This document shows positions 47,800 to 63,705 of a DNA stretch of 64,000 nt, piece after piece; positions within the stretch are counted from its first letter, which is position 1; every line of letters begins with the position of its first letter. The position numbers and the translations under genes were made by a program. The notes beneath the pieces were generated by a model. It made no database searches. It was not told the origin of the DNA and saw only the letters and a program-made list of their open reading frames with translations. The stretch lies in IMG/VR virus record IMGVR_UViG_3300036793_000060, positions 1 through 64,000 of that record, one strand, 5' to 3'. The DNA is from a virus. Its lineage: Duplodnaviria > Caudoviricetes.

Positions 47800-48711
47800 T
47801 CACACTCCAGACAGCAGGCACATCGCCAGCGGCTGGTCAAGGCCGATGGCAGCTGCCCGCTGGGTGTCGGAGCGCCAGGTCTTGCGCGGCTCGTCGCGGT
47901 AGAGAGGCCCGGCCAGGAAGGGCAGCTCGTCCGCGTAGAAGCCAGCGCGCTGGCGCTGCATGACGATGGCGTTGCCGACGGGGACCTGGCGGGACACCAG
48001 GACGTCCAGGTTGAAGATCTTCTGCGGGAGGACGCCCGTGTACTGCAGGTTCTCGCTGGCGATGTCGCCGATGTAGGGCGCCGCGAACGTGCTCGACTGG
48101 AGCAGCGTGTTCTTGGTGCCGTGGTTGATGATGAGCGTGTCCGCCTCGAAGCCGAGCCACTGGGTGACCCCGTTCGGCGAGACGATGTTGGCGTTCTCCA
48201 CCAGGTAGCAGGCCTGCGCGAGGTCCGCTCGGGTGGTCGCTGACGCGGTGCTCCAGGCGTTCGCCACGGCGAGCGTCTGGATCGAGGCGTTGGCGACGGT
48301 GGCCGAGTAGAACGCGGTGTTCCAGCTGTAGACCATCGTGTTCTTGACCTGCAGCAGCTGGCGTGTCACCGGGTCGATGGCCTGCCTGCGGCGCATCTCG
48401 TCGGAGACGGTGATCGCCATCGCCCGCTCGTGGCTGAAGACCACGCGGGGCGTGCCGATCGAGGTCGGCATGACCGGGACCTCGCCGAACTCTGCCCTGA
48501 TCTCGGGGAAGTCGTCCGCGTACAGCGGGGTGGACTCCGAGTACCTGACAGCGCCGCTTGGTGCCGCGCCTCCCATGCGGAGCACGGAGTCCATGATGAA
48601 CTCGTTCTCCGTGATGTCCAAGATGAGCGCGGGAATGACCAGGGGGTCCTTCAGCAGCTCATTGACGGTTACTCTCGGAGCGTCCGAGTAGCCCCTAGCG
48701 CCCGTAGGCAT
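47800..48711 (-). CDS. Major capsid protein (HK97 fold)
   Basis: E.AEFGE.PV, ITVSDEM.RR, TLII, size and position after scaffold and decoration genes. Confidence 0.85.
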   Translation of the reverse strand: MPTGARGYSDAPRVTVNELLKDPLVIPALILDITENEFIMDSVLRMGGAAPSGAVRYSESTPLYADDFPEIRAEFGEVPVMPTSIGTPRVVFSHERAMAITVSDEMRRRQAIDPVTRQLLQVKNTMVYSWNTAFYSATVANASIQTLAVANAWSTASATTRADLAQACYLVENANIVSPNGVTQWLGFEADTLIINHGTKNTLLQSSTFAAPYIGDIASENLQYTGVLPQKIFNLDVLVSRQVPVGNAIVMQRQRAGFYADELPFLAGPLYRDEPRKTWRSDTQRAAAIGLDQPLAMCLLSGV

Positions 48712-49260: not shown

Positions 49261-50418
49261 CTACAGGCCGACCTGTGTGCGGTACCTCGACTTCAGCTCA
49301 CTGCGAGCCTGCTCGGCGGTAGCCGTGTTGTCCGGCTCGTCCATCGGCGTGCCAAGCTCAGGACCCAGGTCCAGCAGCCGGGCAGCGTTGGAGTACTCCG
49401 TCAGCACCCGACGCATCACCAGGCCCGCGTCCACGCCCTGCCCGCCGGCCAGCTCGACGACGTGCCCCGTGCCCTCCAGCAGCGGCCGGGCCATGTCCAC
49501 GATGTACGGGGGCACCCCGGCGTCGGCGAGCTTCCTGGCCTCCAGCTTGAACGCGTCCTGATCCATCTTGCGCTGCACGATTCCCAGCTGCCTCTGCGTC
49601 TCCGCCAGCTCGATGGCGGCGGGATCCCAGCCGCCGGACAGCTGCGCGGGCTGCCTCTGCTCGGCCTCGAACTCCTCCTGCATCGCCTGCAGCGACTCAT
49701 CGTCGACCTGGGCGATGACCTCCGCCAGCTCCTCATCGGTGAGCAGCCTGTCATCACCGTCCCCGGCGTCGCCCGTGACGTTGTTCATCAGCGCCTCGAA
49801 CGCCGAGTCGTCCAAGTCGAGCAGCCTGTCCAGCCGCGCCTGCTGCCTGGCGTCCAGTCCTGGCACTGTCTCATTCCCTTCCGAGGAGCTGTAGGTAGAA
49901 GCGGAGAGGTCGAGCACCTGCTCGACGGTGGTGTTCGACATCTCGACCGCTTCCCACGGCCCCAGGTCGGGGATGCGCGGGTCAAGCGTGCCGAGCACGT
50001 GCTGGATGGCGGCCGGGTAGCTCTTGCCGTCGCTGCGCGCGTAGTTCTCCACGATCCGCGCGGACACGCCGAGCCTGGGGTTCTCCTTCAGCAGCCGCTC
50101 GCCGCTGGGCGTGGGAACCATGCCGATGTACAGCCCGTCGTCGCGCACGTCGAAGTCGATGACCTCGCCCCGGAACCGCTCGGGGTCGTTGGTGTGCGTG
50201 TTCTTGGCGTCCGCGATCTGGAAGGGCACCTGGTCGTACGCCCTGTCGGCGAAGGACTTGGCGAGGTCTTGCAGGTAGTCACGGGTGAACTTCAGCGTGC
50301 GGCCCATGTACTCGACGTCGTCAATGGGCAGCACCCGCTTCCACCAGACCCGCCCGCTGCCATGGACGGCGGGCTTCTGGCTGTCGAACGGGGTGAGGAC
50401 GGCTACCTGGGGCTTCAC
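49261..50418 (-). CDS. Prohead protease/scaffold (Mu gpI-like)
   Basis: H.NDPE..RGEV, GVSARI, HVLGT.DP.I..L.PW; acidic coiled C-terminal half. Confidence 0.8.
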   Translation of the reverse strand: MKPQVAVLTPFDSQKPAVHGSGRVWWKRVLPIDDVEYMGRTLKFTRDYLQDLAKSFADRAYDQVPFQIADAKNTHTNDPERFRGEVIDFDVRDDGLYIGMVPTPSGERLLKENPRLGVSARIVENYARSDGKSYPAAIQHVLGTLDPRIPDLGPWEAVEMSNTTVEQVLDLSASTYSSSEGNETVPGLDARQQARLDRLLDLDDSAFEALMNNVTGDAGDGDDRLLTDEELAEVIAQVDDESLQAMQEEFEAEQRQPAQLSGGWDPAAIELAETQRQLGIVQRKMDQDAFKLEARKLADAGVPPYIVDMARPLLEGTGHVVELAGGQGVDAGLVMRRVLTEYSNAARLLDLGPELGTPMDEPDNTATAEQARSELKSRYRTQVGL

Positions 50419-51425
50419 GAGCCACCGCCGCCGAACGAGCCGGGCTTGGTGTTCTGCGCACGCCTGGCCATCGCCATCGCCTGCGCGGGGGACAGCTTCC
50501 TGGCGATCAGCTTCTTGTAGATCGCCTGGCCGCGCGGGTTCAGCCCGTTGCCGTCGGAGCTGCCGCCGCCGCTGCTGCTGTCGTCGCCGTCGTCGGTGCT
50601 GCCTGCGAACGACCGGACGTTGGTGACGCCCAGCTGGGACAGCAGGTCAGGCTGCGGGGGAGGCCCCTGCAGCGCCATGGCAGGAGGCCGGGCCGGGTCA
50701 AGCGCGGAGCGGTTCCACGTGCCGACCAGCTCCTGCAGCGCCCCGCGCTGGTGGGTGTGCGGGGAAAGCTCTGTGCCGTCGATCAGCGACCGCCAGGCCC
50801 CGTCGTCGCCCCTGCCCAGCTCTCCGATGTACTCCCCGCCCATCCGGTGTCGGATGACAGCCGTTCCGCCCTGCCCCCTGGTGACGATGAGGTCACCTGG
50901 GTCGCGGACGGGGATGCGCGGCCTGCCGTTGGCCATCAGGACCACGCCGCCGGGCGTGCGCTGCGTCTCGTTGGACAGGCCGGCCCCGCCGGGTCCTGTC
51001 GTCACGGTCACCTGACGTGGCCTGAAGCCAGACCGGGCGGCGTAGTCGCCGCGCGCCGGGGTCTGCAGGTCCGAGGGGGATGCCGGGTCGCTCGTGTCAG
51101 CCGTCCCGCCGCTGACCTGGAAGTCCGCGTTATCCGACCGGTACCCGCAGTTCGGGCACTGGAGCTTGCCCATCGAGGGCATGTCGTCAATGTCGTTGTC
51201 GCCGTCGTCGGCCAGGCGGAGCACCTGGCCTTCCCAGCCGATGTTCGAGTGGACGTGTGACCCGCCGTGTCGTGACAACCTAGCCATTCCCTTCCGGCCG
51301 TACTTCTTGCGGCCGATCCACGCGGCAAGGGCGCCGGGGTTATGCGCACCGCGAGCAGCCAGGGACGCCGACAGTGCCTTGAAGTTAGCCCCGCTCCCTG
51401 GTGGTGCTCCTGCGGCAGTTGGCAC
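50415..51425 (-). CDS. Head-associated hypothetical protein
   Basis: GGAGGAG RBS before GTG; F..L...LAARGA.NPGALAAWIGRKKYG; CPNCG. Confidence 0.7.
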   Translation of the reverse strand: MPTAAGAPPGSGANFKALSASLAARGAHNPGALAAWIGRKKYGRKGMARLSRHGGSHVHSNIGWEGQVLRLADDGDNDIDDMPSMGKLQCPNCGYRSDNADFQVSGGTADTSDPASPSDLQTPARGDYAARSGFRPRQVTVTTGPGGAGLSNETQRTPGGVVLMANGRPRIPVRDPGDLIVTRGQGGTAVIRHRMGGEYIGELGRGDDGAWRSLIDGTELSPHTHQRGALQELVGTWNRSALDPARPPAMALQGPPPQPDLLSQLGVTNVRSFAGSTDDGDDSSSGGGSSDGNGLNPRGQAIYKKLIARKLSPAQAMAMARRAQNTKPGSFGGGGS

Positions 51426-51444
51426 GGATTCTCCTCCAGGTAAG

Positions 51445-51481
51445 GCCATTGATCGACATAGTACGCTCATCTGCCTGCCTG
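51445..51481 (-). promoter_or_regulatory. Candidate late promoter/operator
   Basis: CAGGCAGGCAGATGAGC (identical to 3062-3078) followed by TACTAT. Confidence 0.4.
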
Positions 51482-51492
51482 GCTACTGACGA

Positions 51493-54400
51493 TCAGTATC
51501 CGGCAGCAGACATTACCTCTCGGGTAAGGCTTGCAGCGCTCATCGCGTCCAGTCCAGCCCCGACCATCTGCCTCGCCAGCTCGGAGCGGACCATCCTCAC
51601 AAGGGCGGGCGTAGCGGCCGGCGTGGCATGCTGCACGGTCTTCTGCGACTTCTTGCGCATCCTCGCCATGCCGTAGACAGCGTCCGCCAGGGCTGGGCCG
51701 GCCGCGCCGACGGTGGCCGCCACGGCTGGGACCACCACGCCCATCATGTCCGGTACCTCGCCGTGCAAGCCGGTGAAGTACGCCCCTATCCCGATTACCC
51801 CGCCGATCGCGACGCTCATCGCCGTGGTCAGCGCCGACCGCATGCTGTGCCGGGCCTCGTCCTTCGCCTCGATGGCAGCCTGCGACTCCTCAGCCGCCCT
51901 GGCCCGCTTCTCCTCGGCCAGCTCGCGGCCTCGCACGGTGTGCAGCTCGCGTTCTGTCTTCAGGGCGCGCTGAAACTGCTGGCGCTGAGTGCTCTCCAGC
52001 GCGGACATCCTGTCGTGCATGTCGGACATGACCTGCGCCTGTGCCCGCAGCAGGTCACCCAGGTCAGCCCTGACCGGGTCATCGACGCCGAGCTTGTCCG
52101 CCAGCTTGAATGCCGCGTCGTTCATCAGCCTGGTGTGCAGGTCCATGGCCTCGCCTGATGCCCGCCAGCCGCCGGGGGAGTGGCCTGCCAGGCGCATCTG
52201 CTCGACGGCGCCCTTCACGCTGGTGACCTTGCCCGCCGCGACCGCCTTCTGGGCGCGCAGCTCCATCCGCTTCTCGCCCGTCGTCCTCACCGGGGTGGCC
52301 CTCGGCCGGGGGGTCGCTGCCATGGTCCGCGCCTTGCGCGCACTGCGGACCTGCATCAGCGTCGCGGCTGTCCCCGCAGGGGTGCGGCGGGGCAGCGGCT
52401 CGCCGGGCGCGCTTCCGGCCTTCACCCACCGCCCGTGCGGGCCGCGCAGCTGGCCGGGGTTGAAGTGGTGGAGCACGCCTAGCTCGACGGCTTGCGCTGC
52501 AATCCCTTGCGGATGGCCGTCGCTAGCTTGTCCGCCTCCGCCAGCCTCTCTTCCTCCGTCAGGTCCCAGTAGTCGTCCGGTATAGCCACGTGGACCTTGC
52601 GAGGGCCAGGCGAGCTGGTGGTCTGTGATGTGCCCGCCACCGCTGCCTCCTGTACTGATCGTCTCGAACGTGTTGAGGTCGAAGATGCCCACCTGGTCCC
52701 GCTCCTTTCCCAGCCGCTCGGCTGTCGCGCGGTCTGGGACGTTCTGCGAGGGGTCGAGCCACAGCTTGCCGTCTTCCACCCATCCACCAAGGTACATGTC
52801 GTGCCCCTTGAAGGACTCCTTCTCCTTCACCAGCAGGTCGTCGATGGCGTGCCGCAGCTTCACCTGGTCATCGAGGATCTCCGCCGGGTACCGGTGCGTG
52901 TGGCCCTCCAGCGCGACCATGAACCCGCCCGGCGGCGATTCCCCTGTGCGAGGGGATACCGAGAACCCCTCGCGGTTCTTGCTCATCGTCTCCTCGGCCT
53001 CGCGGGCGCCGGGGAACCGCGACCACCGGCCGCGCGAGTCCCGTGGCTGGAGCGGGTCGAAGTGCAGGCCCAGCTCGATCACCTGGTCATACACGGAGTT
53101 GCTCAGGATTCCCGCCTGGTTAAGCTCGCCCGGCCATAGCGCCTTCTGGCCCTCCTTGACGATCTTCCACCGGGGCGCGCGGTACTCCGCCAGGGTGGTC
53201 CCCCTGGTGACCTGCCCCTCGGGCTTCACCTCGTAGACCCAGCCCTTCGGGCCGCCCTCCGGCTTCCCTGCGTCGAACCACTTCCTCTTCGCGGCGTCTG
53301 TCGCGTAGCCGTGCGCCTCGCGCAGGTTGGTGGTCGTCGCCTGCGTGCCGTGCATGTCGAAACCCCAGCTCTTGTCATGCCCTGGCTCGATGTAGTCACC
53401 GACGCCGAGCTTCGCCCCTGAGCCGTGGTAGAACGTGGTCTCCGAGACCCACTTGCCGAGCGGGTCGCGTGGCTCGTGATCGTCGAATCCCAGCTCGATT
53501 GCCTGGCCCCAGATGCCTGCCAGCGCCGTGGTGCCGTGCTGGACGTCCAGGTTGTGCGCGGCGGCGTAGGAGTCCCAGTTGTCCCAGAAGTTGGCCACCG
53601 AGGTCGCCCTGCCCTTGGCTGACTTCCACGGCGTGCCCTTCTGCGCTGCCTGGATGAGCAGCTGGTCCTCCGCGTTGTTGACCCGCTGCTGGCGCTGCCA
53701 GGTGATCGCCTGCAGCTGGTGCGGGGATACGTCCTCGCCCTCAGATCGCAGCTGCTCAGCGGCCTGCCGGTACATGTCGGCGATGTGCGCGTAGCCCTGC
53801 GGGGAGTCAACGGGGGCCTGGTCCTCCTTGACCTTGCCGTCCACGTCGTCCTTGAGCAGCCGCTTGCCGGCCGCCACCGACAGGGCGTGCCGGTCGATGA
53901 CCACCTCGCCGTCGCTCTCGCCGGGCAGGTCACCGCCGTTGCGGATGAGCCGGTAGAACGCCCTGGTCTTGGGCGAGGGGAAGGCGGCGTCGCCGGTCTT
54001 CCCGTCCATGATCGCCTGGGCTGTGTCCTTGATCCGCCCGGTGACGCCGATGCCCTTGTCGACGGGGTGGCCCAGCTCGATGCTGCGCGCCGCGTTCATC
54101 ATGTTGACCGGCCACGCGGTCTGGGGCGAGAAGACGCTCAGCAGCGCGGCGCCCTTGTCCGCGTCCCCGCTGCCGAGCATCCGCCCGAGCAGGTGCGCGT
54201 CCGAGTACCAGCGCTTGCCTGTCTCGCGCTCGTCCGGCGTCGAGTCGTGATAGGCATCGACGATGTTCTTCGCCGACATCTGGTGCTTCGCGAAGAACGG
54301 GTGGTCAGCCGGGTCGCTGATTACGCTGCCGTCCTTGCGCCGCCTGATCAGCCGGTCATGGTCGGGCACCTTGTAGTCCGTGCCCGGCGTGTCCCAGTGC

Positions 54401-55368
54401 GGGTCCTCAGACTCCCTGGTGCTTGCGTCCCGCGTCCACTCCCCGTGGCGGTTACGGTGCTCAAGGGGGTCGAACCGCCAGCCCAGCTCGGTGACGGCCG
54501 GGGGCGGCGGCGCCTGGATCATGGCCAGCTCGATGGTGTGCGCGGTGTCGTCTCGGGCCAACACCTGGTACCTGCTGCCCCGTGGCAGCACCCACTCTCC
54601 CAGGTCGCCTTCGCCCGGCATGACGTGCTGGCCGACCTTCGCGTGCACGATCACGTGGTACGGGGTGCCCGTGTGCTTGCGTGCCTCGGGATCGAGCACC
54701 GACGGGATCTGCGACCTGAACCGGGCGAACTGGTCAGCCCACTCAGACGACACGCTGGTGGACGTGTAGTTCGGGTCGGTGAACTGCGCGCCCGGCTTCA
54801 TCTTCTCCGACAGTGCCGGGGTCATCGCGATGCCCCGGTGAAAGTCCGTGTCCTCGGCCAGCGAGTGCCTGGACTCCGCGCTGTCCAGCTTGTTAATGGC
54901 ATCCTTGACGACAAGCTCGTCCTTTATGCTCCCCCGGAGCAGTGACTTGTCACCGCGCAGCAGCCCGGCGATTAGCGCATTGTCGCCGGGCGCTACGTAG
55001 TCCTCTATTGCCGTCTTCTCATTGGGTGTGTACTCACGCCCGGTTAGCTCGCTGTCCAGGTGCGGCGGCGCTGGCTGGAATCCGAAGTACTTAGGCGGGA
55101 TGGTGCCGCGCGGGTCGAGGAACCTGCCCGTGCTGTCGCTTGCCTCGTAGGGGAAGTCGACGGTCTTCCCGCCCTTGAACCGCACCGTGGCCTTGTGCTC
55201 GTCCTCGAACACGTCCGTAACCTGGCCCCTGCCGTAGTCCGGGTGCTGTACTCGGCGTCCGACCGGTGCCATCCCTGACAGGCTCCCGACGATCCACCGC
55301 CCGTGCGACCCTCGAAGCTCGTGCTCCCAGGCAGCCAGGTCGAGCTGCTCGGATATCTGCGCGGTCAT
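51493..55368 (-). CDS. Polyvalent head-cargo protein: SH3-like, VIP2-type ART, helical domain, Arr-like ART, unknown domain, C-terminal TM
   Basis: ATG at 55368 (ATGA overlap); domain motifs are given in the findings. Confidence 0.85.
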   Translation of the reverse strand: MTAQISEQLDLAAWEHELRGSHGRWIVGSLSGMAPVGRRVQHPDYGRGQVTDVFEDEHKATVRFKGGKTVDFPYEASDSTGRFLDPRGTIPPKYFGFQPAPPHLDSELTGREYTPNEKTAIEDYVAPGDNALIAGLLRGDKSLLRGSIKDELVVKDAINKLDSAESRHSLAEDTDFHRGIAMTPALSEKMKPGAQFTDPNYTSTSVSSEWADQFARFRSQIPSVLDPEARKHTGTPYHVIVHAKVGQHVMPGEGDLGEWVLPRGSRYQVLARDDTAHTIELAMIQAPPPPAVTELGWRFDPLEHRNRHGEWTRDASTRESEDPHWDTPGTDYKVPDHDRLIRRRKDGSVISDPADHPFFAKHQMSAKNIVDAYHDSTPDERETGKRWYSDAHLLGRMLGSGDADKGAALLSVFSPQTAWPVNMMNAARSIELGHPVDKGIGVTGRIKDTAQAIMDGKTGDAAFPSPKTRAFYRLIRNGGDLPGESDGEVVIDRHALSVAAGKRLLKDDVDGKVKEDQAPVDSPQGYAHIADMYRQAAEQLRSEGEDVSPHQLQAITWQRQQRVNNAEDQLLIQAAQKGTPWKSAKGRATSVANFWDNWDSYAAAHNLDVQHGTTALAGIWGQAIELGFDDHEPRDPLGKWVSETTFYHGSGAKLGVGDYIEPGHDKSWGFDMHGTQATTTNLREAHGYATDAAKRKWFDAGKPEGGPKGWVYEVKPEGQVTRGTTLAEYRAPRWKIVKEGQKALWPGELNQAGILSNSVYDQVIELGLHFDPLQPRDSRGRWSRFPGAREAEETMSKNREGFSVSPRTGESPPGGFMVALEGHTHRYPAEILDDQVKLRHAIDDLLVKEKESFKGHDMYLGGWVEDGKLWLDPSQNVPDRATAERLGKERDQVGIFDLNTFETISTGGSGGGHITDHQLAWPSQGPRGYTGRLLGPDGGREAGGGGQASDGHPQGIAAQAVELGVLHHFNPGQLRGPHGRWVKAGSAPGEPLPRRTPAGTAATLMQVRSARKARTMAATPRPRATPVRTTGEKRMELRAQKAVAAGKVTSVKGAVEQMRLAGHSPGGWRASGEAMDLHTRLMNDAAFKLADKLGVDDPVRADLGDLLRAQAQVMSDMHDRMSALESTQRQQFQRALKTERELHTVRGRELAEEKRARAAEESQAAIEAKDEARHSMRSALTTAMSVAIGGVIGIGAYFTGLHGEVPDMMGVVVPAVAATVGAAGPALADAVYGMARMRKKSQKTVQHATPAATPALVRMVRSELARQMVGAGLDAMSAASLTREVMSAAGY

Positions 55369-55628
55369 GAGAAGTCCAGGTCGCTCTCGCCCCAGGTGAA
55401 CCGGGGCGCGTGCTGCTCGGTCGTCACCTCGGGCTGGCCTACGGTTCCCTTCAGCCTGGCCAGCATGGTGCCCGCGTCCTGGACCTGCATGAGGGCCTTG
55501 CCGTCGGGCAGCGTCTGGGCCAGGGCGCCGACCTGCCTGATTGCCTCGTCCACCCGGCCTGCCGGGTCTTCCCACGCCCAGCTGGCGATGTCCGCCGCCT
55601 GCTGCCCCTCGGGGGTGAGCTGGATCAT
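55365..55628 (-). CDS. Hypothetical protein
   Basis: Coupled ORF ending in DLDFS. Confidence 0.6.
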   Translation of the reverse strand: MIQLTPEGQQAADIASWAWEDPAGRVDEAIRQVGALAQTLPDGKALMQVQDAGTMLARLKGTVGQPEVTTEQHAPRFTWGESDLDFS

Positions 55629-57772
55629 GGCCTCGCCGCCTCTGGGTGCCTCTGTATGGCCAGTGCGTACGCCTGCGCTGCCTGCAGCGCGCGGTCGTAC
55701 GCATCGCTCATCTGTACCACGGCATCCCCGCCGATCTTCGGATTCGGGCCTATCTCTCGGAGCGCGGCCTTCGTGATAGACGGGTCAGGGACGTCATTGC
55801 CTGTCGCAAGCATGGCGACCTGCGTGGCCATGGCCCACCGCTTGCCTGCCGGCCCCTGCCGGTTGATCTCGTCGGAGACCGCCCGGATGCCCTCCGGCCC
55901 GTTGCCCCTCGCGTCGGCCACCAGCCTGGCCCACTGGTAGGCGGCTGCCGTCTGCTGCGGGTAGTGACCCCACGCGTCGCCGTTCATGATGCGGTCGGGA
56001 TTCTGCAGGCGCTCCGCGTACTCGCTCAGGGTGGCGTGCTTCTGGCTGCCCAGGGCCTTCCACTCGCCGATCATCTTCCTCAGCCTGTCGGCGTCCCCGG
56101 AGAACTCCGGCCAGCCGGAGTGCTGGAGCTTGGACAGGTGCGACAGCGCATTGACGTCGTCGTGGTACACCGCGATGTACATCCGCACGTCGCCCAGTGA
56201 CCGCGCGATCTCCAGGGCCTGCGCCTGGCCGTGCGGGAGCGACGAGTCCGCCAGCCTCCTCTGGATGTCGCCGATCGCCTTCTTGATCTCGCCCAGCTTG
56301 GCCAGCGCCTCCGGGTTGTCGACCGGGGCGCCGTTCTCGTCTACTGCGGTAATCGGCGTGGGACGGCCTCCCACGCCCATCGCATCGAAGAACTCCGGGG
56401 CGTGGAATATGGCCCCCAGCTCGGTATTGCCCTCCTCGATCGCCGCATTAGTCGGGTCCTGGTAGGCGGACATGTGCGCCTTGTAGCTCTCCGGCGCCTT
56501 GGGAATGGCGCTCACGCCCTTTGCTGACAGCCGCCATTCCTCGGGCTTCACTGTAATTACGCCCGCGTAGTTCTTCTCCGTCCGCTGCTCACGGTGCTCC
56601 AGGTACCCGCTGTCCGACAGGCTGGCGAGGGTGATGTCACTGGCGTCGGACAGCCCGTGCTCGGCTTGCAGCTCGGCCAGCGAGTGATATGAGCCTTCCG
56701 GGCCGTCCCGGTACGTGAACGAGTCCATGTGGTCGAACGCCAGCAGGGCGTCGGACTGCCTCTGCGTGACGCCGGGAACCGTCCGGTCTGTGCTGCCGGG
56801 GAGCGTCCCGTGGATCAGCTCGTGCAGCTGGATCATGAGTGCCTCGGGGTGCTTGACCTCGCCGTCGGACTCCATGTCCTCGCGCACCTGGGCGGCGATC
56901 ACGTCGGAGACGCGCATCCGCCCGTCCCAGTCCAGGTCAGCCTCCAGGTACGGGTTGCCCGAGGCGGCGAAGACTCCTAGCTGGCCGTTCCACGCGCTGT
57001 GCTCCCTGCCGCCGAGCAGGCCGGGCGCCCTGCCGCTGAGCAGGCCGGGCACGATCTTGGCTGCCTTGTCCGCCCACTTCAGCGCGTACTCCTGGTCAGT
57101 GCCCTTCTGGACGACGTCGCCCTGCATCATGTTCACCCGGTGGATCAGCGACCTCAGTCGCTTCTCCTGGTTCAGGTCCCGCTTGTCGTGGGCCAGGTCA
57201 GCGGCCAGGCCTATGAAGTGCGCAGCCTTACCCCTGTAGTTCGTGTTCGGGTCGGACGCCTCCAGCACGCGCGCCGCCCAGCGCAGCCGCTCGCCGATGT
57301 CGTCGTTGCCCATGTCCTCGGCGCCCTTGGCCTCCTTGAGGATCTGGTTGCGCAGGTCGGCGTCGGTGGAGAACTTCTCCGGCTTGGGCGTGGTGTCCTT
57401 GCGGGATTCCCTCGTGATCTCGTCAATCATCGACTTCAGCGTCTCCGGGCTGCCCATCCCGCTCGCGCTGGGCTTCTCGGTGATCAGCTTGATGGCCGTC
57501 CGCAGGTGCTTCTTCGCGTCCAGCGGCTTGCCGTCCTGCAGCGCCCGGTCAGCGTCTCCCATGATCTGGCTGAAGATCGGCCACGCCCCCGGCTCACCGC
57601 CGAGCATCTGCAGCCTCTTGCTGACGCTGGAGTAGTCGGGGCCGCCGGATCCCCCGCTCCTGGCCCACTCACCGTTCTTCCCGCGCAGCTCGTGCATCCA
57701 GGCGGTCTCCCACCCCGCCAGGTCCAGCTGCTCGCTGATCAGCCCAGCGTGGCCAGTTCGATCGCCGTCCAC
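55625..57772 (-). CDS. Polyvalent head-cargo protein with zincin metallopeptidase
   Basis: QLHELIHG and a downstream IEEGNTE. Confidence 0.8.
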   Translation of the reverse strand: MDGDRTGHAGLISEQLDLAGWETAWMHELRGKNGEWARSGGSGGPDYSSVSKRLQMLGGEPGAWPIFSQIMGDADRALQDGKPLDAKKHLRTAIKLITEKPSASGMGSPETLKSMIDEITRESRKDTTPKPEKFSTDADLRNQILKEAKGAEDMGNDDIGERLRWAARVLEASDPNTNYRGKAAHFIGLAADLAHDKRDLNQEKRLRSLIHRVNMMQGDVVQKGTDQEYALKWADKAAKIVPGLLSGRAPGLLGGREHSAWNGQLGVFAASGNPYLEADLDWDGRMRVSDVIAAQVREDMESDGEVKHPEALMIQLHELIHGTLPGSTDRTVPGVTQRQSDALLAFDHMDSFTYRDGPEGSYHSLAELQAEHGLSDASDITLASLSDSGYLEHREQRTEKNYAGVITVKPEEWRLSAKGVSAIPKAPESYKAHMSAYQDPTNAAIEEGNTELGAIFHAPEFFDAMGVGGRPTPITAVDENGAPVDNPEALAKLGEIKKAIGDIQRRLADSSLPHGQAQALEIARSLGDVRMYIAVYHDDVNALSHLSKLQHSGWPEFSGDADRLRKMIGEWKALGSQKHATLSEYAERLQNPDRIMNGDAWGHYPQQTAAAYQWARLVADARGNGPEGIRAVSDEINRQGPAGKRWAMATQVAMLATGNDVPDPSITKAALREIGPNPKIGGDAVVQMSDAYDRALQAAQAYALAIQRHPEAARP

Positions 57773-58521
57773 GTGTCCTCCCAGCTCAGCCTCGCGTTCC
57801 GCCGCCTGTTCGCCGCCTGCTGGGCGATCAGCCTCCGCCGCGACTCGCCGGACGCGTACGCCTGGGCCTGCGCGGTTCGCCTCAGCGACTCGGCGTTGTC
57901 GGCCGGGTTGCGGGCCAGCCCCTCGTTCATGGGCAGCTTCCGCAGCTTGTCGGCCGCCGCCGACAGCCGGTCGGAGTACTCCGGGCGCATCCGCCGCTCA
58001 GTGGCCGAGTCTGCCTTCAGCGTCCCGGCGTGCACGCGCGCCAGGGACGGCTGGCCTCGCTCGATCATGGTGGCCGCGCGCCGGAGCGTCCTGGCCGTCT
58101 CGGACTCGGGGACCTTGTCCGGTGACGTGCCGCCGGCCCGCTGCATGTCGTGGAAGCTGGCGCCGCCGCCGTGCGTCTTGAGCAGGTTGTAGTTCTCCAC
58201 CTGCCTGCGGTCGGCCTCCGCCGCCAGCGCCCTCAGCTCCTTCGCGTGCTCGGGCGACCCCGCGCTGGCGGGCATCGCCTTGTGCGCGAGGGCGCCGCGC
58301 GAACCCTCGCTGGACCGCGCCACGCCGACGGACTTCTCGCCGAACCCGCGCCTTCGCAGCGAGTTGCCCCGCAGGTCGACGCCATGCCGGCCGCCGGGCG
58401 GGACAGACGGCAGGCCTGGGCCGCCGACGTACCGCCAGCCGTGCACGTACCCCTTAGGCCCGGCCAGCTCGACCGCGCCAGCCCCCAGGACTGCGAGCAG
58501 GATGGCCTCATCGATGTTCAC
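57739..58521 (-). CDS. Head-associated basic hypothetical protein
   Basis: AVELAGPKGYVHGW..VG. Confidence 0.7.
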   Translation of the reverse strand: MNIDEAILLAVLGAGAVELAGPKGYVHGWRYVGGPGLPSVPPGGRHGVDLRGNSLRRRGFGEKSVGVARSSEGSRGALAHKAMPASAGSPEHAKELRALAAEADRRQVENYNLLKTHGGGASFHDMQRAGGTSPDKVPESETARTLRRAATMIERGQPSLARVHAGTLKADSATERRMRPEYSDRLSAAADKLRKLPMNEGLARNPADNAESLRRTAQAQAYASGESRRRLIAQQAANRRRNARLSWEDTWTAIELATLG

Positions 58522-60617
58522 TTGAGCCTCGCAGCCTGCGCGGTCAGCTGTGCCGCCTGCGCCTGTAGCTGGGATATCTGCGTGTTAAGCGTGGCTATGC
58601 CCGCCCTGAGCTGGGCCGCGCTCGCGGGCGGCCTGGCTGCCGTTGCCGTCGTCTTCTTCGCTGCCGTGGTGGTGGCCGTAGTCGTCTTCGCTGCCGTGGT
58701 GGTGGCTGCCGGGGCGTTGGACGCCGTGGTCGATGCCTTCGCGGTCGTCTTGGACCCCGCCTGGCCGGTTGTCACCTTGCCGCTCGCGCTGGCCAGGGCC
58801 TTCATCATCGCGTTGCGCTGGGCGATCAGCGTGTTCGCCCTGGCCCGGTCGTTCCTGGCCTGAGACAGCATCGCCGACCTCTTCTGCGCCACGACCTTCA
58901 GGTGCGACAGGTGGGCCATGTGCTTCTGGTGCGCGGTGGGCTGCTTGCCCTTGGCCTGCTGGCCCTTCTGCGCCTGCTGGCCGCCGCTGCCGTACTGGCC
59001 GAGCACGTTGCGCGAGTCCTTGGCCGATCCTGCCGCCGTGCCTGTCAGCTCGATTGCCGCGCATACGTCGTCCCACGTTGCATTAGCGTGTGCATGCGCT
59101 CTTGCCTCCGCGACCTTCTCCAGGGCAAGGCTCCCGGCCGCCGCCGCGCGCACCTCGGGGTGGACGTGGCCGCCGCCGCGCTCCCACTTGCGCAGCGCTG
59201 CCCAGGCGATCGGGTAGGCCTTCCCCGGCGGCATCCCCCTCTTCTCGATCAGGGCCTTGACCACCTGCTGGAAGTACGGGGAGTGCATGTTCCCCTTGAC
59301 GTTGTACAAGCCTGGCCCGCCGGGCTTGCCGCGCGGGGCAGGGGTCGCCGCCAGCCTCGCGGTGTCCGCTGACAGGTCCAGGGCTGCCCGCTCGGCATCA
59401 CCCCAGCTCGTCGACACGCCAGGCAGGCTGCGCGTGCGCTGGTCGGCCATCATCGGCCCGTAGGCCCGTGAGACCTTGCCCCACTGCGCCTGCAGATCCT
59501 TGTGCGCCTTAGTTACGCTGGCTGCCGCGCGAGGGTCGCGGGCCTGAAGGTCACTCAGCATGCGCAGCTTGGACGGGGGCCGGTAGTTGCCCACGATCGT
59601 GCGGTCCAGCAGCTCACGCCGCGCGGCCTCCTGCGCCTGCGGATCAACGTTAGCGGGGACGGACGTGTGGAAGCCCGCGTCATTCTCCAGGTCGTCATTG
59701 GACTTGCCGTGGGCGGCTGACAGCGTGGTCGCGTCAGGCTCGAACCCCAGCGCTGCCTCCTCCTTGTGCACGTACGATGTGTCATTGACGGGGGCAGAGC
59801 GGACCTGGCCGGCCATCCTGCGCAGCGCGCTGGCGTCGCCTGGGCTGCGCGCCCGGTCTGCATTGCCGTCGATCTCATCGGCCGCCTCATGGACCCGGCC
59901 CGCCATCACAAGGGCGGGCGCACTGGCCCGGTAGCCGGGCACGCGGTCCACCTTGTGCCGGGCGTACGCCTTCTCGATTGCATCGGCCGCCCCCGCCCGG
60001 TCCCACTCCCCGCGTGCGTTGCGACGCTCCAGGGGGTTGAACAGCGACAAGTCGATGGCACGGCCACCGCTCCTGGACGCTGCCACCTGCCTCGTGGCCG
60101 GCCCGGTGACCTTCTGCGGCATCGCCACGCTGGCGTCCGGGCCTCCGGTGGGCAGCGCCCGTGCCCCGCCCGGCTGCTGGCCCGTGGGCACAGCCGCGAG
60201 GGGCGACGTCGGCGTGCCCTGCTCGGGGAAGTCAGACGCGCGGGGCAGCGAGTTGTTGTGGTCCTCGTCGTCGGCGATGTCCTTGACCAGCAGCAGGTGC
60301 CTGTGCACGGCGTCCATGTTCAGCTTGGCCCGGTGGTAGTCCGCGTCGCTGGTGATGCCGTGCCTGTACAGGGACTGCGGCGCGGCATTGCCGATCGCCG
60401 CCGTCAGGTGCCTCTGGGCGGCCTGAGTGGCGCCGCGCTCCAGGGCGCTGGCCGCGTCCCTCAGGTGCTGGTGCATGCCCATCTCAGGGTGGTCGTCCTT
60501 GAGCCTGCCCGCGAGCTGGCGCATGCTGCCCGCCGTCTCCCTGCGCCGGCTGGCTACCGGCCGGTAGGCCGTGGCCCTGCTCGCCGGGGGCCGGTACGAT
60601 CCCGCCTTACCTGCCAC
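58518..60617 (-). CDS. Head-associated multidomain hypothetical protein
   Basis: GTG start overlapping the MuF end; IDLSLFNPLERRNARGEW; ALIEKRGM..GKAY.IA. Confidence 0.75.
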   Translation of the reverse strand: MAGKAGSYRPPASRATAYRPVASRRRETAGSMRQLAGRLKDDHPEMGMHQHLRDAASALERGATQAAQRHLTAAIGNAAPQSLYRHGITSDADYHRAKLNMDAVHRHLLLVKDIADDEDHNNSLPRASDFPEQGTPTSPLAAVPTGQQPGGARALPTGGPDASVAMPQKVTGPATRQVAASRSGGRAIDLSLFNPLERRNARGEWDRAGAADAIEKAYARHKVDRVPGYRASAPALVMAGRVHEAADEIDGNADRARSPGDASALRRMAGQVRSAPVNDTSYVHKEEAALGFEPDATTLSAAHGKSNDDLENDAGFHTSVPANVDPQAQEAARRELLDRTIVGNYRPPSKLRMLSDLQARDPRAAASVTKAHKDLQAQWGKVSRAYGPMMADQRTRSLPGVSTSWGDAERAALDLSADTARLAATPAPRGKPGGPGLYNVKGNMHSPYFQQVVKALIEKRGMPPGKAYPIAWAALRKWERGGGHVHPEVRAAAAGSLALEKVAEARAHAHANATWDDVCAAIELTGTAAGSAKDSRNVLGQYGSGGQQAQKGQQAKGKQPTAHQKHMAHLSHLKVVAQKRSAMLSQARNDRARANTLIAQRNAMMKALASASGKVTTGQAGSKTTAKASTTASNAPAATTTAAKTTTATTTAAKKTTATAARPPASAAQLRAGIATLNTQISQLQAQAAQLTAQAARLK

Positions 60618-61266
60618 TGGGTAGCATCCTTCCTCCCGGCCATGGCCGCCCTGGGTAGCACCTGCAGTGCGGGTGCACCCCTCCGGGGAACCCGATGGAC
60701 GGCATGCTCGTGACGTTGAAGTTCCGGCCGTTGGCCGCCCGGCACTCAGCTGACGTGTGCTTGTCAAGGACAGTGTGCCACCCCAGCAGCAGCCCGTACG
60801 TGGACGCGGCTGTGTCGGCCATCGCGGCTGCCTGCCTGCGCTGCCAGATGGCCGTCATGTGCTGGCCGAAGAACCTCCGCTCGCGGGTCACCGACTCCGC
60901 CAGCGCCTGGGTGAGAGGGATCCCGTGGCTGCGGGCGGCGATGATGTCGGCGGTGATCCTGCGCGTCGCCATGACCGCGAACTGAGCGCGCCGCAGCAGG
61001 TTCAGCCTGGCCACCTGCGCGCTGGCTGGCCCGCTGATCCCGTGCGCGTCGGGCGGCATGCCCATCACCACGTCCAGGGCCGCCCTGAGCGCAAGCCCCT
61101 CGCTCCTCGCCTGCAGCCAGGCTGGCGTCGCGGTGATGATGGCTGCGGCTGCGGCCACGGTGACCTCGGTCGCCAGCACCGAGGCGATCACGACGGCCAG
61201 TGGCATGACGGGAGGAGCCTGCCCCGCCGCCGGGGGCTGCGACTGGGGCGGCGCCGGGGTGGTCAT
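60607..61266 (-). CDS. MuF-like minor capsid / head morphogenesis protein
   Basis: D..TS.EC...NG...PG.VHPHCRC. Confidence 0.85.
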   Translation of the reverse strand: MTTPAPPQSQPPAAGQAPPVMPLAVVIASVLATEVTVAAAAAIITATPAWLQARSEGLALRAALDVVMGMPPDAHGISGPASAQVARLNLLRRAQFAVMATRRITADIIAARSHGIPLTQALAESVTRERRFFGQHMTAIWQRRQAAAMADTAASTYGLLLGWHTVLDKHTSAECRAANGRNFNVTSMPSIGFPGGVHPHCRCYPGRPWPGGRMLPSGR

Positions 61267-61583
61267 TTCCTGTAGCGCTGCGTGCGCCATATCGCGATGC
61301 AGCGCCAGAGGATGCTCACCGGGATGAGCCAGATGGCCACCGTGTCAATCCACAGGAATGCGTAGGCGTCCGGGTTAAGCCCGATAACACGGTGCAGGAA
61401 AGGCCCGAGAAGGGCCAGTGCCACGGTGGCGTCAAAGAATATGACATTCCACCCGAACTCATTCTTCCACCATGGCCAGTAGCCGATCTTGGGAATGCCG
61501 ATGGCGGGAAACAGTACCGAGAGGATAAACGCGACGATGACCCCGTTCTCAATGAGGTCAACCAGCAGGTGCTCCGTTACCAC
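61263..61583 (-). CDS. Putative holin (3 TM)
   Basis: Three hydrophobic helices, WW...G motif, basic C-terminal tail. Confidence 0.6.
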   Translation of the reverse strand: MVTEHLLVDLIENGVIVAFILSVLFPAIGIPKIGYWPWWKNEFGWNVIFFDATVALALLGPFLHRVIGLNPDAYAFLWIDTVAIWLIPVSILWRCIAIWRTQRYRK

Positions 61584-62043: not shown

Positions 62044-63705
62044 TCACCCCCCTAGCTTGCCGGTAGGCGAGTTCATCGAGGGCTTGGACGGGGGCCGTGG
62101 CGGGCCTGCGGGCGCCTGCTGCACGCGCGGCTGGCCGGCCTGCCCCGGCGTGCCCCCTGCGCGCTGCCCTGGCGCCGGGGGAGGCCGAAGCCCTCCGTTC
62201 TGCGCCCCGGCCTGCTGGGCGATGCCGAACGCGGCGCTGGTCATGCCCTGCATGGCGCCCAGGCTGCCCGCTGCCTCCGGCGGCATGCCGGGCGGCGGGT
62301 TCCCCGCCAGCTGCTCGGCGCGCTGGTTGGCGGTCGAGGACAGCGCCTCGTGCACCGCGTCCACGTCCAGCTGCAGGATCGAGGCCATCCGCTCGCAGAT
62401 CATGTCGAACACGGGCAGCGGGATGTGCATGGCGGGCGCCGCGTTCAGCTGGCCGAACAGGGTCATGATCGCCTGCGCCTGCTCATCCTCCAGCGGGCCG
62501 AACTTGAACGTGGGGAAGACGGCCTTGCTGCCGAAGTTGAGCAGGATCAGCGGCCGGATCACGTCGTAGGCGATCGACTCGGAGATCTCCGTGGCGATTG
62601 CCTGCCTGGACTGCAGGAAGAAGCTGGACTGGTCCTGGGACAGGGCGAAGCTGCCCTTCCCGCCGGTAGCGCTGCCGGTCAGGGCGAGGAACCCTGCCAG
62701 GATGCTGTGCGTCTGCCAGCTCTCCAGCCAGGCCATCGCCTCGGAGAAGAACTTGCCGCCGTCGCCGCTGCCCTCCAGCACCTCGAATGTCTTGGCGTTG
62801 TCGCTCGGGCGCTCCAGGCCGACCACGCCGCTGGACTTCAGCGAGGCGATGTCGCTCGCCTTGGCGTTGGCCTCGTTCTGGTCGTTGCCGTAGACGATGG
62901 TGCGCGGCAGGGCCTGGTTCTCCAGGAAGTGGTACCAGAGGTACAGGAGCTTCATCTTGGTCTGGTAGCACCAGTAGCAGACCTCAAGCTCGGACACGCC
63001 GGTCATCGGCTCGCGGTACTTGCCGTGGGTGTAGATGTAGCTGCGCATCCGTGGGATGTCGACGTAGCCGGGGACCTTCTGCTTGCGCTGCACCATCAGG
63101 TTGCCGCCGAACAGCCACACCTGCTGGCGGAACCCGTTCGGCTCGCCGCTGCGGTCGTTGTAGCGGGCCTGGCAGGTCGCCGGGGGCCGGTAGGCGATCT
63201 TGTCGTAGATGACCTTGCCGTCGCTGTCGCGGATCTTGAACGTCTTCTCGAAGAAGGACCGCCGGAAAATCTGGGCCGACGTGACCTGGCCTATCAGCTC
63301 GGACATCGGGGTCTTCATGCCGCCCTCGGAGTCCGGCGTCATCAGGACGCTGTTCGCCAGCTTGGCCTCGCCGCTGTCCCCCTTGCCCCCGGTTATCGAC
63401 CTGTCTGCCTGCCTGATCGGGAGGGTGAGTGCCTGCGCCAGCGCTGCGGAGATGCCGTCGCGGGAGAACATGACCTTCATGTCCCTCGCGCCCCACTCGC
63501 CTTAAACCGTAGTCAAAGACATCACCTTCCCCATAGTACGCAAACAACCTCTGACCCCAGTCAAATTGGGTAATTGCGTGCCGATCTCCGGACCAAGCAG
63601 CGAGCGCCTACCTCCGCCCGCAGACTTGCTCCCCTTTGGGGGAAGATCAGGAAACTCAACTACATTCTCTAGTCCAGCTACCTTCTTCTTGGATGAATCA
63701 ACCAC
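62044..63705 (-). CDS. Portal protein (DUF935/Mu gp29-like); 5' part split over three frames by two TTA-containing inserts
   Basis: Continuous ORF 62044-63480 with portal motifs (G.SEL...YW, GSFALS); 5' extension reconstructs to 548 aa. Confidence 0.85.

Follow-up and report, generated by a model that had tools for sequence, protein, structure and literature searches.

The window analysed here is the first 64 kb of the 77,089-bp virus record IMGVR_UViG_3300036793_000060 from IMG/VR, a complete genome with direct terminal repeats, and its head operon includes a ~9 kbp stretch, between the genes for a MuF-like minor head protein and a protease/scaffold protein, that encodes four large cargo proteins and one small protein. 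The cargo proteins carry seven copies of a module in which a short core site, [ILV][ED][LM][AGST] (Part 1), is followed by a header peptide (Part 2). On balance we think it somewhat probable, from sequence comparison, a structural model and analogy with other phages, that these polyproteins are cut at Part 1 by the phage's own gp21-like protease, and that the header-bearing units stay in the head and are delivered with the DNA. This appears to be a new form of protease-processed capsid cargo, and the header peptide appears to be undescribed; no published description of a junction or header peptide was found in the literature, including searches with spelled-out forms of the motif.

In the proposed pathway the cargo proteins would be built into the procapsid, and the prohead protease would then cut both scaffold and cargo at Part 1, likely after the acidic residue as in T4 and the giant phages. 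The same motif would mark the boundary between the protease and its own scaffold part, and further sites through the scaffold. Part 2, of the form (W..AW.HE or F[DN]P...)R...G[ERK]W.[KR].G(G), would then stand at, or close to, the N-terminus that cleavage gives each unit, and each such unit would be retained in the head and delivered with the DNA; the header could serve in retention, in ejection or after delivery.

A repeated module in the cargo genes

The module motifs are all on the minus strand, as are all of the window features described below, and are read in frame in the genes that separate MuF from the protease/scaffold gene. The pattern [ILV][ED]L[AGST]..R..G.[WYF] has seven matches in the cargo frames and one spurious match in the other six-frame translations of the 64 kb. 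With T also allowed at the first position there are eight matches in the 3,052 cargo residues, compared with a mean of 0.054 and a maximum of two in 5,000 shuffles. A 34-position profile of the module, compared with the whole 77,089-bp genome, identifies seven modules (E-values 8e-15 to 1e-8), all of them in cargo genes, and nothing else at E<=1. The motifs quoted in the original prediction are thus real and all present in frame; the conserved unit is longer than was noted there, spanning ~35 residues with the consensus [LI][ST].Q.[ILV][ED]L[GAS]W...R...G[ERK]W.[KR].G.

Module 1 (59979-60086; ..GGRAIDLSLFNPLERRNARGEW..; matched by the pattern, and at 32.1 bits, E 9.6e-9 with the profile) is in cargo protein 1. 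Module 2 (57641-57754; LISEQLDLAGWETAWMHELRGKNGEW; 38.7 bits) is the N-terminal header of cargo protein 3, and module 3 (55270-55371; MTAQISEQLDLAAWEHELRGSHGRW; 39.9 bits) is the N-terminal header of the polyvalent protein, which also contains module 4 (54412-54522; AVTELGWRFDPLEHRNRHGEW; 43.3 bits, with TIELA ten residues upstream), module 5 (53425-53529; GQAIELGFDDHEPRDPLGKW; 36.1 bits), module 6 (52999-53109; DQVIELGLHFDPLQPRDSRGRW; 49.6 bits) and module 7 (52402-52518; AQAVELGVLHHFNPGQLRGPHGRW; 51.4 bits). The original prediction had taken all modules as internal domain boundaries and had begun the largest open reading frame at 55704. Its real start is the ATG at 55368 (MTAQISEQ...), in agreement with the public gene call P0011 of 1,291 amino acids (aa), and an 87-aa gene (55365-55628) occupies the gap upstream; two of the modules thus head separate genes.

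Three degenerate variants stand beside the seven copies, among them the two weaker forms that had been predicted. The first, AAIELTGTAAGSAKDSRNVLGQY (58968-59084; IELTG..RNVLGQY), reads IELTGTAAGAAQDSRTPLGTF in relatives; the second, of the VELAGPKGY.HGW type, is the degenerate header AVELAGPKGYVHGW (VELAGPKGYVHGW) seen in the translated N-terminus of cargo protein 2 (58435-58476). A second header type, E[LF][AV]GPKG[YW].HGW, heads both cargo protein 2 and the homologue of the window's 351-aa head-module protein in the relative L005 (L005:7833-8720). The LEFVGPKGWSHGW of the cargo protein 2 header also heads the P0005 homologue in L005, and the N-terminus of the window's own 351-aa protein differs.

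The closest relatives of this genome, whose window has a G+C content of ~68%, are uncultured viral contigs and prophages in metagenome-assembled genomes of Streptosporangiaceae and other Actinomycetota. The module is kept in the cargo genes of relatives L001, L002, L005, L010 and L011, with real matches scoring at least 15 bits and noise no more than 8 bits, and it stands at the N-terminus of separate genes in relatives where it is internal here, and vice versa. Prophages of Streptosporangiaceae also contain it. In a protein library, 149 members have 373 modules between them; the median distance from one module to the next is 312 aa, and 44% of these proteins start with a module. A search of PDB sequences with the module profile gave a best E-value of 0.4, inside colicin-M-like domains, which is a chance match.

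The segments between modules are unrelated to one another. The module is the only sequence shared by cargo protein 3 and the polyvalent protein, and a single Pfam or PHROG domain lies between successive modules both in the polyvalent protein and in P0012-14, P0052, P0054 and P0057; the inter-module domains of other module-bearing proteins include Abhydrolase_8, DUF7178, PI3/PI4-kinase-like, ART-PolyVal, GNAT, HNH and MuF.

At the DNA level the module copies share exact words of no more than 14 nucleotides (nt) and are 64-74% identical over 50 nt, with differing codons for the invariant R, G and L. Short shared words together with synonymous codon differences indicate selection on the peptide and not on the DNA. 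We therefore regard it as very improbable that the repeats are DNA recombination cassettes or remnants of tandem duplication with no peptide function. Such cassettes would account for the variation of inter-module domains among relatives and for the fusion and splitting of genes at modules, but the idea is rejected by the codon usage and repeat analysis, and it also meets unrelated flanking segments and a peptide conserved over very distant lineages.

The bacterial beta-clamp binding motif is QL[SD]LF, and the QLDLA of some modules was considered as a beta-clamp-like motif; this candidate was dropped, as most modules read Q.[ILV][ED]L[GA]W.

The protease/scaffold protein and the candidate cleavage site

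The protease/scaffold protein (49261-50418) consists of a predicted prohead protease (residues 1 to ~150) fused to a helical, scaffold-like C-terminal part. Residues H75, S119 and H140 are invariant in 59 protease sequences, and their His..Ser..His order is that of assemblins. An AlphaFold2 (AF2) model built from these 59 sequences (an earlier one from six sequences had a predicted local distance difference test score, pLDDT, of 49.5 and was unusable) has a pLDDT of 82-95 over most of residues 11-145, and 75-78 at residues 61-80, followed by a long helical C-terminal part. The top Foldseek match of the N-terminal domain is T4 gp21 (5jbl; E 1e-3, probability 1.00), followed by herpesvirus proteases, and alignment to 5jbl with VIA gives a Z-score of 8.3 and a root mean square deviation of 4.0 Å with 128 of 164 residues aligned, compared with Z-scores of 4-5 for the herpesvirus proteases. 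The model thus places the N-terminal domain in the T4 gp21-like prohead-protease (assemblin) fold. The position of the gene, between portal/MuF and capsid genes and joined to a scaffold part, is also that of prohead proteases. The family has at least 1,318 members and no Pfam model, and its named members are all annotated as hypothetical except for one "XRE-family regulator".

Part 1 is concentrated in the cargo and the protease. There are 18 core 4-mers in these 3,863 aa, against nine in 16,404 aa from the rest of the window, and the window's capsid, portal and MuF proteins have none. As the original prediction had proposed, the short element recurs in the protease/scaffold protein, with six 5-mers where 0.22 are expected and where none of 5,000 shuffles reached six: AVEMS (49936-49950), VLDLS (49903-49917), AIELA (49603-49617), IVDMA (49489-49503), VVELA (49447-49461) and LLDLG (49363-49377). 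Most homologues retain AVEMS, I/LDLS, IEL-A and VVEL-A, and 120 of them together contain 672 sites, against 88.5 expected (7.6-fold). These sites form three clusters, one in an N-terminal leader, one where protease and scaffold meet (WEAVEMSN..IIDLS) and one in aa 260-400, with only seven sites in aa 20-140; in the model of the window's protein the boundary sites lie in stretches with pLDDT <50. A leader of the form MTAAVLTPF..A[VI]EL[GS], ending in the core motif, is present in 73 of the 120 homologues (P0161-P0279), which suggests from sequence an N-terminal propeptide.

Because the motif is enriched in the linkers of a protease/scaffold family with a T4 gp21-like fold, Part 1 is probably, by analogy, a prohead protease cleavage site, with the cut after the E/D of a hydrophobic-[E/D]-[L/M]-small motif. 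There are precedents for this: the T4 internal proteins and Alt carry an N-terminal capsid-targeting sequence (CTS) that gp21 removes at (L/I)-x-E (PMC3012670), and in T4 and the giant phages the prohead protease recognises short motifs, with cleavage following a Glu, in itself, in the scaffold and in internal or ejected proteins (PMC10052503, PMC3012670).

The T4 CTS is similarly a short N-terminal leader that ends in an acidic protease site and is carried by diverse head-borne anti-host proteins (PMC3012670), and T4 gp21 is the closest structural match of the protease described here. The N-terminal modules start M.[LI][ST].Q.[ILV][ED]L, ~10 residues, which is near the length of the T4 leader; in this pattern, and in pattern only, the polyvalent protein starts MTAQISEQLDLA and its relatives start M.LVSQQLIELG and MQLVSERVIDLG. 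Unlike the T4 CTS, the unit is here also internal, with several cargo units strung in one polypeptide, and the site is followed by an R..G.W peptide that is absent in T4; there is no sequence similarity to the T4 CTS. In the giant phages (SPN3US gp245 at A-X-E; phiKZ and 201phi2-1) one motif with Glu at P1 is likewise used in the protease itself, in the head proteins and in ejected proteins of high abundance, and a single propeptide often has several copies (PMC10052503). Their cuts, however, trim the N-terminal propeptides of single proteins and do not split unrelated enzyme domains, and no conserved header follows the site; the phage described here has a 77 kb genome with a Mu-type portal and MuF.

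Several observations weigh against cleavage at Part 1. The protease has no Pfam match even at E<=10, including to Mu-like_Pro (PF10123). It also has no match in PHROGs, nor in a PDB sequence search with a protease profile, and comparison of an 11-sequence protease profile with Mu gpI using hhalign gives a probability of 1.3%. Similarity to PF10123 clusters is 0.96 by language-model features and the predicted-structure TM-score is 0.79; the protease lies outside Mu-like_Pro by sequence and, judging by the predicted structures, may be a distant relative of it. The A[VI]EL[GS] leader seen in 73 of 120 homologues is missing from the window's protease. One core 4-mer (SIELGH) is located within the DUF7178 domain, and the scaffold site VVELA belongs to a strand modelled with confidence. 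The site is also retained in modules that begin separate genes, where no upstream domain needs removal, so that Part 1 may serve a different or a further purpose. Finally, some half of the wider set of modules have no core 4-mer, which fits sites that are specific to each lineage, short of proof.

Covariation in one small group supports that last explanation at the sequence level. In the lineage with a DUF2213 protease the header is preceded by RMMDA|F, and RAMDA|F and GVMDA|G recur in the N-terminus of the capsid protein, as would be expected of a lineage-specific site followed by a shared header. A search for Peptidase_S78 and Mu-like_Pro in five other contigs bearing the tag gave one weak S78 match, too little for an analysis of covariation.

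The retention of Part 1 at gene starts with nothing to cut off would also be explained if the whole module were an uncleaved docking or packaging signal, with polyproteins injected intact and the scaffold motif providing a common binding surface; some polyvalent proteins, such as the N4 virion RNA polymerase, are indeed packaged unprocessed (Iyer 2017, PMC5512222). We consider this unlikely, as the motif sits at the protease/scaffold boundary, in linkers and in the N-terminal leader of the family and is nearly absent from the protease fold, the lineage-specific motifs before the header covary with those of the capsid N-terminus, and proteases with the same fold in T4 and giant phages cut short acidic motifs. 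A complex prediction of the protease/scaffold protein with the module scored 0.00 and gave no answer, and counts neither for nor against cleavage.

The header peptide and its distribution

Comparative searches with the motif, as the original prediction had proposed, show that the header class is wider than R..G.W and includes [FY][DN]P..PRD..GRW. The module profile matches 294 protein clusters at E<=1e-3 among 1.84 billion representatives, mostly of 500-2,600 aa and with two to eight copies. The full module is found in high-GC proteins, and other lineages have only [FY][DN]P..PRD..G[RK]WT.GG, following K-A, K or L-x-[FY]; a divergent form in P0057 reads EELHPRDDHGRW. The exact DNA pattern for FNPxxPRDxxGRW is present in at least 51 viral contigs, with fewer than one expected (an estimate from the information content of the pattern). 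In several contigs the header comes straight after the start Met (MFNPDQPRDDHGRW), often in small head-module proteins, and elsewhere it follows K/R-x or E-L-A. Searches for relatives of P0057 and P0067 in phages, and of P0067 in viral contigs, gave no useful matches. The contig L018 (IMGVR_UViG_3300037467_000821) contains two identical 166-aa open reading frames starting MAFNPRQPRDRHGRW, 773 nt apart, a tandem duplicate of a small header-bearing protein.

Only R, G and W are near-invariant in the header. The Asn-Pro or Asp-Pro of the common F[DN]P could in principle make it a self-cleaving element that requires no protease, but this is scarcely credible: many good modules lack F[DN]P (e.g. 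W..AW.HE.RG.HGEW), including two in the window, and with F[DN]P dispensable the idea was rejected.

The header crosses the boundaries of head-gene families. Two header-bearing contigs have head modules of different families, with a Phage_portal_3 portal, a DUF2213 protease-like protein and a different capsid. The Pfam domains in 34 header-bearing proteins include ADP-ribosyltransferases (ARTs), MuF, Zeta toxin, NUDIX and InPase, the repertoire typical of phage polyvalent proteins, and there is no metallopeptidase among the 22 Pfam families matched in them. By its sequence and distribution we take the header to be a real, widespread and autonomous short peptide.

MuF is a frequent companion of the header. 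It is identified by the Pfam model in 20 of 42 header-bearing records and in all five of the complete ones, and by a crude MuF profile in seven of 51 loci, so that the link is frequent and its universality lies beyond these data. In the MuF-cargo fusion L022 the header lies about ten residues past the MuF domain, and in L035 and P0052 it is present on both sides of MuF. The SPP1 MuF protein, gp7, reaches the head through the portal. If the MuF proteins here behave similarly, MuF already targets the fused cargo and the header is needless as a separate address at these junctions, which argues against its being simply an address label. The original prediction had read each module as a cleavage site plus a packaging tag; comparison backs the first half of this, and the position of R..G.W at MuF-cargo junctions partly contradicts the second. 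In this lineage the 8-10 residues ahead of the putative cut site, kept at gene starts, would be no weaker a candidate for a targeting leader of the T4 kind.

Among the candidate roles considered for the header (retention on an inner component or on DNA, an exit leader through portal and tail, an aid to cleavage on the P' side, and a role in the host), two amount to separate explanations. Should the header be a P'-side recognition or exosite element, the whole module would be one extended cleavage signal between bulky domains. The fixed distance of 10-15 residues between header and core site fits this, as does the header's presence at MuF-cargo junctions, where release and not targeting is needed, and all of the proteases involved may share an assemblin-like fold. 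It nonetheless seems distinctly unlikely, given that the scaffold and self-cleavage sites have no header, that many small proteins carry the header right after the start Met with nothing to cut, and that the header is constant though the residues upstream differ (E/D-L-A, K-A, M-D-A), which would need a conserved exosite beside a divergent S1 pocket.

To an action of the header in the host after delivery, by binding a host factor or as a stability or timing signal on effectors, we give little credence. The conservation of the header across phages with unrelated capsid, portal and protease families, and its persistence on the mature unit under the cleavage model, speak for such a role. The header also heads MuF domains and proteins with no enzyme fold, however, the hosts span G+C fractions of 0.43-0.75 with no single conserved target obvious, and stand-alone DUF7178 proteins encoded outside the head module lack it.

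A broader proposal is that tailed phages use the header as a general address peptide to direct cargo to the capsid lumen or into the ejection route, with the header working across unrelated portal, capsid and protease lineages and always placed just after the protease site of the lineage; we offer it tentatively and find it rather doubtful. Encapsulin cargo-loading peptides are short linear peptides, usually C-terminal, that bind the shell protein directly with no coupling to proteolysis. They provide a candidate likeness, as a short conserved peptide on unrelated enzymes destined for the lumen of an HK97-fold shell; they differ from the header in their usual C-terminal position, in sequence, and in being uncoupled from proteolysis. 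In MuF polymorphic toxins a MuF head protein similarly has a variable C-terminal toxin (PMC5576092, PMC3482391), and the header is found at that junction in viral contigs. No junction peptide or cleavage is described for those toxins (PMC5576092, PMC3482391), and MuF is here a separate small gene with the cargo in other genes.

Cargo proteins, neighbouring genes and implications

The minus-strand head operon has the order portal, MuF, cargo proteins 1, 2 and 3, the 87-aa gene, polyvalent protein, 351-aa protein, protease/scaffold, a 168-aa gene and major capsid protein. The portal protein (62044-63480) is of the Mu type (Pfam Portal_Mu 2.8e-32, phrog_113). The 227-aa MuF-like minor head protein (60607-61290) matches Phage_Mu_F at 3.3e-6 and 28.2 bits, just below the cut-off of 29.6, and phrog_115, and the major capsid protein (47800-48711) matches phrog_1650 (3.6e-69) and Phage_capsid_4; as noted above, neither contains a core site.

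Cargo protein 1 (58518-60617; ~699 aa) has homologues in L001, L002 and L005 and an Ala/Thr/Lys-rich coiled C-terminus. It starts at the GTG at 60617, which is preceded by GGGAGGAAGGA and overlaps the MuF stop. Cargo protein 2 (57739-58521; 260 aa, no family) overlaps the cargo protein 1 stop by GTGA, and a core site, AIELA (57751-57765), lies four residues ahead of its own stop. Cargo protein 3 (55625-57772; 715 aa, no family) has no Pfam match and no usable match in the ESM Atlas. Its start is uncertain: a start at the GTG at 57772 retains the complete module, with an overlap of 34 nt with the end of cargo protein 2 (57739-57772), and a public gene call begins 25 codons further on, at an ATG within the module; ISEQ is preceded by a CTG codon. 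The 87-aa gene that follows has no module and shares ATGA overlaps with both of its neighbours.

The polyvalent protein (51493-55368), whose sequence is that of P0011 in the public protein library, has five modules and five segments. Segment 1 (54724-55038) is ADP-ribosyltransferase-like, with a sub-threshold match to ADPrib_exo_Tox (E 6.6e-4, 19.5 bits against a cut-off of 23.4) and to the Alt-like phrog_802. Segment 2 (53698-54282) is a DUF7178 domain (PF23802, 1.1e-31). Segment 3 (53179-53433) resembles Arr, the rifampin ADP-ribosyltransferase, again below threshold (Arr-ms E 7.2e-4, 20.1 bits against a cut-off of 25), and segment 4 (52675-52923) is phrog_17808-like (E 3.8e-4). The tail of segment 5 (51697-51957) is a coiled coil followed by hydrophobic, probably membrane-spanning helices, with a weak VIT1 match over the hydrophobic stretch. 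This C-terminal end, a coiled coil with two hydrophobic helices, could insert into a membrane, like parts of the pilot or ejection proteins known from other phages.

DUF7178 was the sole match when the polyvalent protein was compared by tblastn with 50,697 phage records. In Streptomyces phages (e.g. Thestral gp78), the Lentibacter phage ICBM2 and cyanophages it is encoded by a gene of its own, away from the head module, and the stand-alone genes in the Streptomyces and Lentibacter phages have no header, which ties the header to the head-borne form. Stand-alone DUF7178 proteins (L008, L009) are of ~200 aa and encoded among small genes, and the same function seems to be packed in advance in one case and expressed after entry in the other.

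The comparisons support the identification of the cargo, as in the original prediction, as MuF-linked polyvalent proteins with one predicted domain per inter-module segment. P0011 has at least two unrelated effector-type domains in one polypeptide and is encoded at a late/virion location beside portal and MuF; among the relatives there are Abhydrolase_8, PI3/PI4-kinase-like and DUF7178 domains. Polyvalent proteins as described previously likewise combine several unrelated effector domains (ARTs, NUDIX, Zeta toxin, InPase, MuF); their genes adjoin those for portal and MuF, and packaging and injection have been predicted for them (PMC5512222). They differ in that autoprocessing by an embedded metallopeptidase was proposed for them and no repeated junction or header peptide is mentioned (PMC5512222), whereas the header-bearing proteins examined here matched no metallopeptidase family.

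The 351-aa protein (50415-51470) is a conserved head-module protein with no core site. Its homologues in relatives are 41-47% identical, and it has no family match. It contains a CxxC.. zinc-ribbon-like segment and an invariant C-terminal helix, GL.PRGQ.IYKKL.A....P..AMAMA.RAQ. Similar basic helix motifs are found in cargo protein 1 (SPYFQQVVKALIEKRGMPPGKAYPIAWAALRKWERGG, at about residues 500-540 of the open reading frame) and at the C-terminus of the 351-aa protein (IYKKLIARKLSPAQAMAMARRAQ); the two recall ChaB-like phage domains, and ChaB is frequent in Atlas clusters of Mu-like proteases.

The loading, processing and delivery of phage proteins are known in detail for only a few models, such as T4, P22, P1 and the giant phages. 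The module would provide a rule that covers many phages, most of them uncultured, by which each cargo unit starts with the protease site of its lineage, followed by a shared header. If true, this would explain how polyvalent proteins with no peptidase of their own are dismantled, and injected effectors such as ADP-ribosyltransferases and DUF7178 proteins would become recognisable from sequence. It would also predict the cleavage specificity of the protease family described above, and would yield a short tag with which foreign proteins might be packed into phage heads. If the header were in addition a general address peptide, the addition of ~35 residues would be enough for many phages to load and deliver any protein, with the header acting much as a signal peptide does, but for phage cargo.

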